From contig JAHQWL010000081.1 of NCBI GenBank assembly GCA_029856155.1, positions 32,001 through 96,000 of the forward strand: a stretch of 64,000 nt of DNA, written 5' to 3'. Source of the stretch: Promethearchaeia archaeon. GTDB taxonomy: Archaea; Asgardarchaeota; Lokiarchaeia; Sigyniarchaeales; SOKP01. The position numbers and the translations under genes were made by a program. Each line of letters opens with the position of its first letter. Positions within the stretch are counted from its first letter, which is position 1. Below the pieces are notes generated by a model, which ran no database searches, had not been told where the DNA came from, and saw nothing but the letters and a program-made list of their open reading frames with translations. This document shows positions 30,100 through 35,645 of the stretch, in pieces.

Positions 30100-30130
30100 T
30101 TTTAAAAAAAAGGCAAGGAGTTTAAAATAA

Positions 30131-30205
30131 TGGCCTGGGGGGGATTTGAACCCTCGATATCTGGCTCCGCAAGCCAGCGCCCTATCCAAGCTGGACTACC
30201 AAGCC
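30131..30205 (-). tRNA. tRNA-Arg(GCG)
   Basis: GGCTTGG acceptor; D arm GTCC/GGGC; CTGGC-TT-GCG-GA-GCCAG; T arm GAGGG-TTCAAAT-CCCCC (one A-C mismatch); no encoded CCA. Confidence 0.95.
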
Positions 30206-30342
30206 ATTATAATCTTTATATGTAATTCTTGATAAATAATTATTTTCTCTAATAAGTATTGTATTTATTTTAATATTTCAAGATTAAAAATGTAATCTAA
30301 TGCAAAAAAATTAAAAAAAAGATAAAAAAAGGGTTAATAATG

Positions 30343-33300
30343 CTAGTATTCTCTCATAATTTCTGTATAGAGATTCTCAATAAATTTGCTAAAATTGTCT
30401 TTATCATATTTGACATTAAGTAAGTGCCATAATATCTTTGGAATATGCTTTTGATCTTCATATACGGGAATCAGTTTTATCAAACCTTCTTTTCTCATTT
30501 GGAACGCTGCTTGCCATTCATCTTTTACAGCTTTAGATTTCACAGAATTTTCGCTACAAAAGAGTAGAAAGGTATTACTTACTTCTAGTGTTTCTTCCAT
30601 GAATTCTACGATGTTTGGTTTGCTATCTTTTTCCCAATACGAGACTTGGTTGATGTTAGGATACTTTTTGAGCTCTTCACAATCTTTTCTATCTGAAAAT
30701 GATCTCGATCAGCGGTAGAATAACTTATAAAGAGATTATACTTTTTTTCTTCCTCTTTCTTTATTATAGGTGGAGGGATAACCGCTTTTTTTATTTCTCT
30801 TTCTTTAACGGGTGGAGCTACTTCTTCCTTTATAACTGGTTTAGAAATTTCTACTTCTAATTCTTTACAATCTTCAACCTTTTCATTTGCTCTGTTAAAA
30901 ATGTAGTAGAAATCATACATATCCGCGGTATCTTGAATTTTTCCTAAATTTTTATAAGCTAATTTAATTTTCCTTTCCCTTATGAGATAATCGACAAAAT
31001 CCAGCTTTTCTTCAAGTTTAGCTCTAACTTTTTCTTTTTTCTTCTCACTTATTTCTTTTTCCTTCTTTGTTGGAATTGATATTCTCTTTTTTATAATTAT
31101 GGCTGCCCCCGTAACTCCAACAACTACTAAACCAATTATCAAAACGATTATTAAAATATCAAAAGGAAATCCACTAGGTAGCCTTGGTAAAATATTATTT
31201 AAACCAATATTATTTCCAACACCCGTATCTACAATTGCTTGACCATTATTCAATAGAGTGTTCCAATCAATAGAATTATAGTTAGACTGATCCAGAAATA
31301 TTCCTATTCCGTTGTTGTTTATTATATTATTTGTTATATTATTATAATGACTGTTAGATAAATGAATACCATATAGCTCGTTAAAATTTATTGTCTCTTT
31401 ATTATTAAGGATATCGATATTACTACAATCAATCAATACAATTCCAGACCTCTCATTGTTATTAATTGAATTCTCTGTTATCAAAATGTTTTGACAAGAA
31501 TCTAAAATTATTCCATTCGCGTTATTAAACGAACAATTATTATAGATTAATTCACCATTTATCGTTGAGTCTAGTTTAATTCCCCCATCATAAAGATCGT
31601 CGCCAGAATTATAAAAAGTACAATTTTCAATCCTGAAATCTACATTCGAATTTCTAATTGTAAGACAACTAGTTGAATTCAAGCCATCAATTGTAATTAA
31701 TCCAATTATATATGGATCATTTAAAGTACCAGAACCATAAATCCATGCTAATTGGCTAATACATTCTACCCACGTAAAATCTCCAGTTCCACTATCATCA
31801 ATAATAATTGGATCTGTGAAACCATTTTCAACATTCCAATTAAAGATATTATTTACACCACCACTTTCATAGATACTATATAAGTTTCCAATGAATACAT
31901 TACCTATGACCTTAGTATTATTGCTGCTCCATAAATACAGTCCCGCAAAAGTGTTATAATTTGCTATATTACTTGCAACGATGGCATTATTGCAGTTCCA
32001 TACAAATATTCCATTCCAACCATTATTATCTACGATATTTCCTACAACTTTAATATCTTGACCATCATATATGTCTATTCCATTGTCACCATTAAAGGTA
32101 ACATTGTTGTTCATTATAGTATTGTTATTACTTGAAGATGATAAATAAATGCCTTTTTGGTCATTATTAAAAGCTGAGTTTTCTGAAATTGTATTATTGT
32201 TACTTAAACCTAAATACATCCCATCAGAATTTTCATTTAAAATGTTTCCCGAAAGAATATTATTATGACTTACTTCTAAAAATATTCCAGACTCTTCATT
32301 ATTGTTTACTATATTTCCATCAATCGTAACGTTTTGACTTTGGTATAACCCAATTCCGACACCATTATTATTTGAACAGTTATTGGTTATCAATTGTCCA
32401 TTAATAACATTTGTTAATTTAATACCTGCATTATACACTCCTGAACCGGAATTAGAAAGTGTGCAACCTACTATCTTAAAAAATACCGTAGAATCCCTAA
32501 TTTCTATGCAGCTACTTGAATTTTGACCATCGATAATTAAATTTTGAATTATAAACGGATCAGAGTAGCTGCCAGAACCTGTACACCAAATAAACAGATA
32601 AGCTGCTTCTACCCATATAAGATCGCCTCCTCCATTGTTATCTATAACAAATGGAGAAAGCATTCCATCAAAATAATTTAAAATAAAATTGTTATTTACA
32701 CTTTCAAATTCACTAATGTGTTGAAATAAGTTCCCAATGAATGAATTACTTATAACATCTGTATTATTGCTTCTATATAACCTTAATCCGAATAAATCGT
32801 TATTACTTAAAGTGTTTCCAATAATTGTATTATTATTGCTTTCCCACAACCACATTCCATAATCGTTATGGTCTACCGTATTTCCTATTACTGTATTATT
32901 ATGACTATGAGCAATAAATATTCCTTCATCATTATAGGAAAAATTATTATTTAAGATCCAATTGTGATTACTTGAAGATTCTAAATAAATCCCTCTTTGG
33001 CCAATATTATTAAAAGCTGAATTATCTGAAATGTTATTGGCGGTACTTAATCCTAAATAAATCCCAGAATAATAATTCTCATTACAAACATTTCCCGAAA
33101 GACTGTTATTATGACTTGTTGCTAGAAATATGCCATACTCATCATTATTACCTGCAGTATTTCCTGAAATTGTAATATTTTGACTATCAGATAAACGCAT
33201 TCCATTGCCGTTATTATTTGAAAAGTTATTGGATATCAATTGTCCATTAATCACATTTATTAATACGATTCCTGCATTATCTAGCCCTGAAGAAGAATTA

Positions 33301-35645
33301 AACGTTATACAGCCTACAATTATAAAATACTCATCGGAGTTCTTAATCGTGATACAACTGCTTAAATTTAATCCATCTATAATTAAATTTTTTATAGTAT
33401 AAGGATCCTTAAATGTTCCAGATCCAGAACACCACGCTAATTTATTTGATGCTTGATCCCATTTAAAATCCCCTCCCCCACTATTATCAATGGTAAATGG
33501 AGAACTTTCATTATTAATAACATTCCAATGAAATGTATTATTAAAGCTATTTATTTCATTATACCATCCGTTTACATTATCATTCAAAATATTACCACAT
33601 ATAAAGCTGTTATTACTATCATGTATAGTTAATCCAAAATCATAGTTTTCTTTAATTAAATTTGCGATAATAAAATTATCTTCACAATTATATAAATAAA
33701 GCGCGCTTAAAGTGCTCTCTGTTATAGTATTTCTTGAAACCGTATTATTATAAGAGTCTGAGTATAACATAATTCCATAAGTGTTGTCTCTAACTAAATT
33801 TTCTAGAACTGTATGATTATTACCAAAAGATAAAAAAATCCCATACATCGAATTAGATTGTAACAAATTTCCTAAAATGGTACTATTTTGACACCAGGCC
33901 ACAATAATTCCTCCTAAATTATTGTTATTTAAATTGTTACCTGAAATGGTGCTATCATCACTCCAACTTTGAATCCCACGTTCATCATTATAACTTATGT
34001 TATTTCCTAAGATTTTACTATTATCACTGTGAAAAATATGTATACCATCGTGAACATTATGGTTTACGATGTTTCCTATAATAGTACTATTATCACCTTC
34101 CCAAATGTATATTCCATTTCCATTATTATTTGAACAATTATTACCTATTAATGTACCGTTATTTGAATGGTCTAACTTAATTCCTGCATGATTTAAACCT
34201 GTGGCGGAATTAAAAACTGTACAATTTTCAATCTTAAAAAAAACATCAGAATTCTCAATTGTGATACAACTGCTTAAATTTAATCCATCTATAATTAAAT
34301 TTTTTATAGTATAAGGATCATTAAGAGTTCCCGAACCAGAACACCATGTTCGAGTTTTAGCCCAATTCCAGTTATTAGATGCACTATCATCAATGGCAAT
34401 CTTACTTCCATTATGTCCATCATCCCATAAAGGGAAATGATCTTGACCTCCTGCAATACCTGAAATATTATAAGGTGAATCTCCAATACCATCATCATTT
34501 TGATCTATTCCTGTATAATCATCCCAGAAATTTCCCATATTTGTTTTATTCCACTTATTATTTGTACCAGTACCTCCATCAAAAGCGTTAATTCCATTTT
34601 TAATAAAAGAATTATTATAAAAAAGATTATGATTACTATCTGTGAATGCGTCTTCAATATAGATACCACTATTATTATTTTCATGAATCTCATTATTAGT
34701 GAAATTATTATAATCACATTGATCGCTTAACCATATTCCAATGTCATTTTTACTCAAATTATTTCGCGAAAGCACGCTATTATCAACATACATGAAATAT
34801 ATTCCTTCACTAGTACTATTATATATTATATTATCAGAGACTGTGTTAAAATTACTATGCTGTGAGAAAATACCCTGATCATTATAATATAATGTATTTC
34901 GGACAATAATATTACTATCACCGGAGAAGTAAATCCCACTATGACCATTATTATATATTTTATTGTCTGTAACATTATTATGGTTACCACCCGATAAATA
35001 AACTCCAATCCAACCATTATCAATAGTATTTTCAGAGATTATATTTTGGGTACTTATAACCTCAATAATTGCATTATGGCTATTATCAATAGTATTTATT
35101 GAGATGTTATTTTGATGACTGTATCTTAGAGCTATTCCTGAATCTCCATTATCTTTTAAAGTGTTTCCTGTGATTGTGATATTATTACAGGTTTCAATCC
35201 ACATTCCAGAACGTCCGTTATTAGAACAATTATTGTTTTCTATTGTTCCATTGTTGACATTTTCTAAAAAGATTCCCCCATATAGATTATCATCCTTTGA
35301 ATTAAAGAGAGTACAGTTACGAATGATAAAATATACATTAGAATTCCGAACTGTAAGACACCTAGCAGTCGTTTGTCCATCAATCGTTACATTTTCAATA
35401 ATATATGGATCACTCCATGTACCTGAACCTGAGCACCAAGGTTGACCTACTGCCCAAGTCCAATTATTACTAGGATTTAAATCATTAATAAGAATTGGAG
35501 TACCGGTGAGATCCCAATATCCTGCATTTTTTAAGCTAGTTTCATAATTATTGTTAGGTTGATCAAAAGTATCTAAAATGAAATTAGTTAAAGTTATAAA
35601 TGTAATGATTCCCATTAAAGACATTATTTTTAAGTTCTTTTTCAT
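30343..35645 (-). CDS. Receptor-like protein: signal peptide, five NosD/parallel beta-helix modules, TM helix, TIR domain; 1-nt frameshift at ~30676 within the TIR
   Basis: ORFs 30606..35645 and 30343..30600 join into LFISYSTADRDHFQIEKIV/ELKKYPNINQVSYWEKDSKPNIVEFMEETLEVSNTFLLFCSENSVKSKAVKDEWQAA...LIPV. Confidence 0.88.
33349..34319. repeat. 59-bp exact direct repeat (33349-33407 and 34261-34319) within beta-helix modules
   Basis: GTGATACAACTGCTTAAATTTAATCCATCTATAATTAAATTTTTTATAGTATAAGGATC present twice. Confidence 0.9.

Follow-up and report, generated by a model that had tools for sequence, protein, structure and literature searches.

Toll-like receptors (TLRs) and interleukin-1 receptors (IL-1Rs) are type I single-pass membrane proteins with a large repetitive (solenoid) ectodomain, built from leucine-rich repeats (LRRs) or immunoglobulin (Ig) domains, and a cytoplasmic TIR domain at the C-terminus. 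The known prokaryotic TIR systems sense intracellular events. In Thoeris, the TIR protein ThsB is cytosolic and senses infection from the inside, and its product is read by ThsA. A prokaryotic TIR protein with a transmembrane helix is also part of the Rst_2TM_1TM_TIR system, which is reported to be over-represented in Asgard genomes; the survey of Asgard defence does not describe the receptors reported here (PMC11291487). Here we describe a gene at positions 30343-35645, minus strand, of a 64,000-nucleotide stretch (the window) from the genome of a Promethearchaeia archaeon (GCA_029856155.1, contig JAHQWL010000081.1). Lokiarchaeota, of the Asgard kingdom, are now called Promethearchaeota. The gene is one of a large and apparently undescribed receptor family found in Lokiarchaeota-type Asgard archaea. 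We consider it moderately probable that it is a member, broken by one missing base, of a family of type I membrane receptors in this lineage, in which a ligand would trigger an NAD-derived signal made by the TIR domain and read by a SLOG-RelA protein.

The Asgard proteins share with TLRs and IL-1Rs the type I single-pass layout, the large repetitive ectodomain and the C-terminal cytoplasmic TIR, and in both families the paralogues are numerous and their ectodomains diverse. Superposition of the TIR folds gives template modelling scores (TM-scores) of 0.64-0.76 (Foldseek, model of an orthologue). The differences are that the Asgard ectodomain is a right-handed parallel beta-helix of the NosD type instead of LRR or Ig, that a helical linker of ~115 amino acids (aa) stands between the transmembrane helix and the TIR, that the TIR fits the Pfam model TIR_2 best and keeps the catalytic Glu, and that the gene neighbourhood of the relatives points to a SLOG-RelA effector. 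We know of no Death-domain or MyD88-type adaptors for the Asgard family. What sets the receptors apart from Rst_2TM_1TM_TIR is an ectodomain of 300 to 1900 aa; a 2TM partner gene was not found either.

Parts and topology of the window gene

The gene lies on contig C82 of a 4.1-Mb, 104-contig genome. Its larger piece is an open reading frame (ORF) of 1679 aa (35645-30606) with very strong Pfam matches to NosD (E 1e-126) and Beta_helix (E 2e-117). It starts with MKKNLK and, in a hydropathy scan, a hydrophobic stretch at aa 7-25, which together look like a signal peptide or membrane anchor (35568-35645); most full-length relatives share this feature. The extracellular region (31158-35567), delimited by Pfam matches and by motif and sequon counts, contains five beta-helix modules of ~300 aa each. 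Module starts are marked by the motif W[CI]xG[ST]G at aa 70, 434, 738, 1020 and 1301 (nt 35438, 34346, 33434, 32588 and 31745), which is part of a longer opening motif W-x-W...W[CI]xG[ST]G...DPY. A Pfam scan of the ectodomain gave NosD and Beta_helix only and no LRR domain. The repeats match those of NosD/PbH1 surface proteins very strongly, the difference being that five tandem modules are here fused to a transmembrane helix and a TIR. The NCBIfam model NosD_copper_fam (TIGR04247) gave 111 bits on the window protein, short of its cut-off of 300; the protein is not NosD proper, the maturation protein of nitrous oxide reductase, and has just the repeat type in common with it.

The single transmembrane helix ILIIVLIIGLVVVGVTGAAIII (aa 1497-1518, nt 31092-31157, hydropathy 3.02) is the sole strong internal hydrophobic segment. 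It is followed by KKR, and the stretch after the helix, KKRISIPTKKEKE, has a net charge of +4. The region N-terminal of the helix is 19% Asn and contains 49 N-x-S/T sequons, or 3.3 per 100 aa; the density falls to 0.4 per 100 aa after the helix, against a mean of 0.65 for long ORFs of the genome. Because of the N-terminal signal, the charge bias and the sequon distribution, the beta-helices are placed outside the cell and the C-terminus inside. The protein thus shows, by hydropathy, positive-inside flanks and sequons, the single transmembrane helix and cytoplasmic C-terminal TIR that characterise TLRs. The juxtamembrane linker (30750-31091), which would be cytoplasmic, comprises a charged helical module of ~75 aa and a Pro/Lys/Glu-rich spacer. 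It matches no Pfam family, and its helical module is also present in family receptors of other types (aa 467-551 of protein P0093 resemble window positions 30822-31082).

Downstream of the linker, the chain encoded by the long ORF reads KYNLFISYSTADRDHFQIEKIVK before the register is lost. Alignments to paralogues and to the orthologue place the first part of the TIR, strand betaA (NLFISYS, from nt 30737) and the start of helix alphaA, in the long-ORF frame at 30675-30749. The long ORF carries the first 25 TIR residues, then 22 out-of-frame codons up to a TAG at 30608-30606. The remainder, alphaA to alphaE, is found by its TIR_2 match at 30346-30675 in the -1 frame, which is open over 30708-30346 and ends with a TAG at 30345-30343. 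The missing base maps to 30675-30678. Gene callers would report a beta-helix protein and an orphan 85-aa ORF, and because of this one-base split the architecture would be missed. The intact receptor would be ~1767 aa long, compared with 1707 aa for the orthologue P0029.

The piece after the break matches TIR_2 (PF13676) with 45.6 bits (cut-off 28, E 1.2e-11) and ThsB_TIR with 21.6 bits, just above the cut-off; the animal/plant TIR model PF01582 reaches 15.2 bits, below its cut-off of 21.3. The orthologue TIR is 89% identical to the joined TIR of the window and gives 61.2 bits for TIR_2, 27.9 for ThsB_TIR (cut-off 21.2) and 22.1 for PF01582, so that TIR_2 and not PF01582, as would be expected of a TLR, is the best model. 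The TIRs of the paralogues score 50-65 bits with TIR_2. The fold was modelled on this orthologue TIR in place of the broken window sequence. The AF2 model (alignment of 118 rows) has a predicted local distance difference test score (pLDDT) of 88.9, a predicted TM-score (pTM) of 0.84 and five strands alternating with helices. In a Foldseek search against the PDB there were 71 matches at E<=0.001, and all 50 matches listed are TIR or SEFIR domains. They include Hydra TRR-2, MyD88, TLR1/2, SPARTA TIR-APAZ, RPS4, SARM1, AbTir and BtpA at TM-scores of 0.55-0.76, with prokaryotic enzymatic TIRs and animal scaffold TIRs matching about equally well.

The conserved Glu in AVKDEW (codon GAA, 30517-30519) occupies the site of the catalytic Glu in TIR NADases: in alignments it falls on the Glu of CRISPR-associated Cat1 (WDELEQ) and on that of the TPR-TIR protein 9m0n (VKKEI). 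Of 118 family members, 117 have Glu there. A Glu at this position is critical for TIR NADase activity (PMC7075850). SARM1, AbTir, SPARTA TIR-APAZ and Cat1, which are TIR NADases activated by assembly, have the fold in common with the family. The differences are the weak sequence similarity, with no more than weak TIR matches among solved structures (9m0n at E 2e-4, Cat1 at E 3e-3), and the usual Trp of S-x-W-x-x-x-E, which is Ala in the Asgard family. The family TIRs may cleave NAD+.

It is worth noting that one paralogue of 799 aa in the same genome is the single exception to the Glu, with Gln in its place. It is one of two tandem TIR receptors at G000:C79:7659-11626 (L003, L004) and its branch on the TIR tree is longer than that of any other copy in the genome.

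A preliminary description, made from the letters of the window alone, had proposed a signal peptide, a beta-helix ectodomain, one transmembrane helix, a linker and a TIR that appears only when two ORFs are joined, and the Pfam, hydropathy and sequon results agree with all of these parts. The TIR, with betaA in the long-ORF frame and the rest in the -1 frame, is confirmed by the TIR_2 score, the orthologue model and the PDB fold matches, and the Glu that had been picked out in AVKDEW proves to be near-invariant. The expectation that automated annotation would miss the split gene also holds, and the guess of an Asgard archaeon as the source was right. Three outcomes had been named that would speak against the proposal, and the findings went the other way in each: the joined C-terminus has a TIR fold, the topology indicators do not put the TIR outside the cell, and the ectodomain is linked to the TIR in intact proteins, namely the 1707-aa orthologue, four paralogues and dozens of relatives.

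The receptor family and its ectodomains

The same genome contains four intact paralogues (1039, 1262, 799 and 514 aa) with the order ectodomain, transmembrane helix, linker and TIR, whose TIRs are 49-63% identical to that of the window. As an example, the 1262-aa paralogue shares with the window gene the last beta-helix module (72% identity), the transmembrane helix (88%), the linker and the TIR, and its distal part is a LivJ-type binding domain with FN3 repeats. A profile built from the five TIRs found at least 244 longer relatives, and all source names given among them are Asgard lineages. Among the 120 best matches, all at E<1e-56, every TIR is C-terminal, and 98 have an internal transmembrane helix before it. 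By hand count, the ectodomains are NosD/beta-helix (~68), SBP_bac_5 (~11), Peripla_BP_6/ANF_receptor (~9) and FG-GAP/PQQ or other propellers (~6), with PKD and fn3 also present, and some members have a four-transmembrane N-terminal domain in place of an ectodomain. LRR-TIR relatives of the family are without a transmembrane helix. Intact members are labelled "TIR domain-containing protein" in public databases, and no account of Asgard ectodomain-transmembrane-TIR receptors was found in the literature searched, a limited body of full texts.

Searching 1.84 billion representatives exhaustively with a profile yielded 196 clusters at E<=1e-30. Of 301 genomes sampled evenly across the phylum, 43 contain the clade at E<=1e-25, with 36 of 68 genomes in the window's own Asgard family, 3 of 7 in the sister family and single matches in three further families (1/1, 1/1 and 1/21); most of the other families sampled gave none, large ones among them (0/76, 0/28 and 0/19 genomes). 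Up to 11 copies occur in one genome. A pattern scan of one genome per species of 185,579 prokaryotes found 69 loci, all of them in Asgard or unnamed archaeal metagenome-assembled genomes (MAGs). Copies in MAGs labelled Thor-, Hermod-, Odin- and Hodarchaeota (L021, L031, L046, L049) are mostly on short contigs and near-identical to Promethearchaeota copies, and may be binning errors instead of a sign of wide distribution.

There are also several TIR proteins of other make-up. Cytosolic members of the same TIR clade have an LRR-winged helix-TIR order and no transmembrane helix (P0084, P0101, P0111). P0106 is a Band7/SPFH-coiled coil-TIR protein, and tandem arrays of 2 to 4 TIRs per protein also exist in the clade (P0003, P0125). 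The window's genome holds a cytosolic ankyrin-TIR of another clade and a more distant TIR in a 559-aa open frame (G000:C31:39267-39671, E 1.5e-8 to a family TIR).

Divergence between the window gene and its orthologue P0029 is uneven. The membrane-distal modules 1-3 have 42-64% identity, a synonymous divergence (dS) of 0.9-1.3 and a ratio of nonsynonymous to synonymous divergence (dN/dS) of 0.25-0.47. Modules 4-5 are 85% identical (dS 0.40-0.43), the transmembrane helix 100% (dS 0.38), the linker 85% (dS 0.63) and the TIR 89% (dS 0.48). Because dS jumps threefold inside one gene, the distal ectodomain has probably undergone recombination or exchanged modules. This fits the pattern of the family, in which a constant cytoplasmic cassette stands behind interchangeable sensors, and fast-changing, recombining distal modules would suit the recognition of variable surface structures.

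The RelA_SpoT-TPR-SLOG neighbour and a possible relay

For a survey of the neighbourhood, every ORF lying up to 6 kb from one of the 69 family loci was included in a clustering. The commonest neighbour other than TIR genes is a protein of ~856 aa, present at 12 of the 69 loci in 12 different MAGs. At 11 of these loci its gene follows the TIR gene on the same strand, mostly 127-710 nt past the stop. All nine full-length members that were scanned carry a RelA_SpoT domain (best E 1e-11) and an LSDAT_prok SLOG domain (best E 5e-7), with TPR repeats. The consensus keeps RVKxISSFANK, DLCGxRI and EIQIRT, which correspond to conserved motifs of RelA/SpoT synthetase domains, as well as the Gly-rich loops IIAGGTD, ISGGTKSG and INGGxIAAFE, which are typical of SLOG/LOG domains. 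The model of the C-terminal half is poor, with a mean pLDDT of 48.5 and a SLOG core at 54-82. Fold matches of this low-confidence SLOG model are nearly all TRPM MHR1/2 regions, including ADP-ribose-bound TRPM2, together with LOG-type proteins; these matches are supportive only. A sequence search of the SLOG part against solved structures gave no match.

The receptors found upstream of the RelA-SLOG gene differ in type, some being four-transmembrane TIR proteins (4TM-TIR) of 686-833 aa and others beta-helix receptors of 876-1900 aa, and on the TIR tree the adjacent TIRs are spread over four positions or more, including the sister of the clade of the window gene. In the 301-genome sample, all seven full-length copies with contig context (G189, G276, G273, G207, G147, G177, G071) adjoin a family TIR gene or lie no more than 2.6 kb from one. 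Shorter RelA-SLOG variants of 671 aa are without such linkage. The window's genome has one RelA_SpoT-TPR-SLOG gene, 68% identical (C92:82832-85387; L078:1477-4044, minus strand). It lies at the very end of its contig, which puts its upstream neighbour out of view, and an orthologue of the 4TM-TIR gene that usually precedes RelA-SLOG in close relatives was not found in the assembly with the query used. The pairing of TIR and RelA-SLOG genes is not described in the same limited body of full texts.

A 526-aa protein of no known family accompanies the TIR/RelA-SLOG pair at eight loci, sometimes between the two genes (L028, L034, L045, L046, L048, L050, L051 and L066; for example L046:5030-6610). 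It has no Pfam match; weak coiled-coil matches to LmuB and JetC and to unnamed Atlas clusters were the others found.

The adjacency of RelA-SLOG suggests a relay like that of Thoeris, with an enzyme and a second messenger, rather than adaptor signalling in the style of TLRs. The likeness to Thoeris consists of the Glu at the catalytic position, an orthologue TIR that scores above the ThsB_TIR cut-off, and an SLOG-bearing gene that adjoins the TIR gene in relatives. Against this, the Asgard TIR is anchored in the membrane as part of a receptor that has an extracellular domain, the output of the effector would be of the RelA/SpoT type instead of a SIR2 or transmembrane domain, the SLOG is of the TRPM/LSDAT type, and the window gene itself has no ThsA or SLOG neighbour. 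In PADLOC, the TIR piece of the window and the transmembrane-linker-TIR part of the orthologue were without a match; of four paralogue parts tested, two had none and the two others only weak matches to ThsB, bSEFIR or TIR-NLR. The resemblance to Thoeris is one of logic, not of membership.

A mechanism can be proposed from these parts. The N-terminal signal or anchor would export the protein, leaving five glycosylatable beta-helix modules outside, one membrane crossing, and the linker and TIR_2 domain in the cytoplasm. A ligand, on a surface or soluble, would be bound by the fast-changing distal modules; for a beta-helix member, a glycan or other surface structure seems the most plausible. Binding would alter the packing of the cytoplasmic TIR domains, perhaps by ligand-induced clustering, and the TIRs would then cleave NAD+ through the conserved Glu and release a signal derived from ADP-ribose. 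In many relatives, the reader of this signal would be the SLOG domain in the neighbouring RelA_SpoT-TPR-SLOG protein, with the RelA/SpoT-type pyrophosphokinase domain as the output. Each of these steps, from ligand binding and TIR activation to the NAD-derived signal and its reading by SLOG, we infer from the arrangement of the genes and domains. Several receptors may feed one effector in trans, since at least five receptor genes stand against a single RelA-SLOG gene in the window's genome. Many paralogues have solute-binding ectodomains, which suggests that the receptors are a general class and not a purely antiviral one. A further and more tentative proposal, which we hold to be possible and somewhat less than an even bet, is a pathway of the Lokiarchaeota lineage as a whole, in which receptors with interchangeable ectodomains would signal through an NAD-derived messenger to the TRPM-type SLOG of RelA/SpoT-TPR-SLOG and so bring about an alarmone or translation-arrest response. 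One effector may serve as many as about a dozen single-pass receptors per genome in such a pathway.

If true, this would be the first outside-in TIR pathway in prokaryotes, a convergent counterpart of TLRs with Thoeris-like chemistry, and a TIR family that binds extracellular ligands would add an outside-in mode to the systems described so far. The family occurs in the archaeal group closest to eukaryotes and would show that the Toll-like layout arose more than once. It would also offer a handle on how Asgard archaea sense partners, viruses or nutrients at their surface, and the recurrent SLOG-RelA/SpoT neighbour provides a concrete downstream route for testing.

Several observations weigh against the receptor reading. 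The SLOG model is poor, as noted above, and the Pfam score of this domain in the window's genome is just at the cut-off (25.4 against 25.4). A RelA-SLOG homologue is present in 11 of the 43 TIR-positive genomes, and in 3 of 28 in the genus richest in TIR genes; because only a minority carries the gene, RelA-SLOG is not a universal output, nor the only one. The neighbours of the window gene are housekeeping genes and not signalling or defence genes, and in the assembly the window copy is out of frame. Beta-helix proteins of the NosD type are common on archaeal cell surfaces, and a structural role is possible. The same Glu is also common in TIR groups without reported NADase activity (PMC7075850).

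In an alternative that we regard as unlikely, although not negligible, the proteins are surface adhesins or envelope glycoproteins and the TIR is a non-enzymatic docking or oligomerisation module that, for example, clusters adhesins or ties them to cytosolic TIR proteins, with no second messenger. Beta-helix, FG-GAP/PQQ, PKD and fn3 ectodomains are typical of adhesins, the cytosolic LRR-winged helix-TIR and Band7-TIR proteins of the same clade could be the partners, and animal scaffold TIRs (TLR, MyD88, Hydra) are among the best fold matches. Such a role sits poorly with a near-invariant Glu at the catalytic position, with SBP_bac_5, Peripla_BP_6 and ANF_receptor domains, which are those of sensors rather than adhesins, and with TIR genes that recurrently adjoin a gene with a nucleotide-sensing SLOG domain. 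In addition, to our knowledge all characterised prokaryotic TIRs are NAD+-processing enzymes. A different question is whether the layout was inherited. The preliminary description had called the gene a beta-helix counterpart of TLRs, "convergent or ancestral-like", and the first of these terms stands while the second does not. An Asgard ancestor of the animal Toll/TLR receptors could be argued from the same order of parts and topology and from the Hydra TRR-2, MyD88 and TLR1/2 TIRs among the top fold matches (18-25% identity). The prokaryotic SPARTA and AbTir TIRs match the fold equally well, however, the ectodomain is a beta-helix and not LRR, the orthologue TIR scores 61 bits with TIR_2 against 22 with the animal/plant model, and the clade is concentrated in one Asgard family. 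TLR-type receptors are, as far as we know, confined to Metazoa. Common descent with animal TLRs is therefore very improbable and was rejected on the absence of LRRs, the non-animal type of TIR and the narrow phyletic spread. Since the family is restricted to a part of the Asgard archaea, the TLR-like layout appears to be convergent, and the protein, although built like a TLR, is not one.

The missing base and the surrounding locus

The break in the window gene is clear in comparison with relatives. The DNA reads GT-GAAGAG against GTAAAAGAG in the intact orthologue, with one base missing, and ATTGT-GAAGAGCTC against ATTGTAAAAGAGCTA in two independent orthologous contigs. In codons, the window has ATT GT-G AAG AGC where the orthologue has ATT GTA AAA GAG CTA. 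The orthologue P0029, which is intact and syntenic, reads QIEKIVKELKKYPNIN across the site, and the joined C-terminus, with one X at the junction, aligns to the four intact paralogues without gaps. Three public runs, from marine sediment and salt marsh, contain related contigs (90-95% identical) that span the site; there are four such crossings, and all show one extra base at 30675-30678. No public run with this strain was found for the site, the best share of sampled words being 0.34; the runs were compared as contigs and contained relatives only, in which a real mutation and an assembly error are not separable. As assembled, the gene would give an ectodomain-transmembrane protein without a TIR, unless the deletion is an assembly error.

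For a truly broken copy the chances are about even. That the deletion is instead an error of sequencing or assembly, so that the organism has an intact receptor of ~1767 aa and only the annotation is split, has a probability that we put a little short of one half. The 121 codons past the break are open, and the 109 aligned TIR codons among them have a dN/dS of 0.14 at a dS of 0.41 against the orthologue; because these codons are under purifying selection, the break is either very recent or artefactual. The extra base in all related contigs also favours an error, as does the origin of the sequence from a MAG of 104 contigs. On the other side, the site is not a long homopolymer (AA against AAA), and eight neighbouring genes are equal in length to those of the orthologous locus, so that indel errors are not frequent in this part of the assembly. 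Nor was a public run of the strain found for the site, and broken family copies are known from other genomes too (G273, G294, G125, G071), from which it follows that gene decay is recurrent in the family. A programmed -1 ribosomal frameshift or transcriptional slippage, by which the organism would make both TIR-less and TIR-bearing forms, was also considered, given that the TIR runs on in the -1 frame without further defects. The site lacks a slippery heptamer of the form X XXY YYZ, and the orthologue, the four paralogues and all related contigs encode the junction in a single frame, so that recoding is not conserved. On these grounds programmed frameshifting was rejected as extremely improbable.

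The other broken TIR copies, with in-frame stops or split frames, are at G273:C15:38660-38959, G273:C41:11759-11980, G294:C6:5194-5568, G125:C570:5171-5509 and G071:C47:30338-30903.

Among the window neighbours of the receptor gene there is no adjacent ThsA-type effector with an SLOG or Macro sensor. The orthologous locus is syntenic, with HAD, NMO, metallo-beta-lactamase and Glu/Gln-type tRNA synthetase genes on one side, and HAD, a 177-aa protein, NTP_transferase and amidase on the other. In the orthologous loci, a gene for a 377-aa class I tRNA synthetase (tRNA-synt_1b) is found between the receptor and HAD genes (L007:11245-12378). The window has only 244 bp of intergenic DNA at that place (30100-30342).

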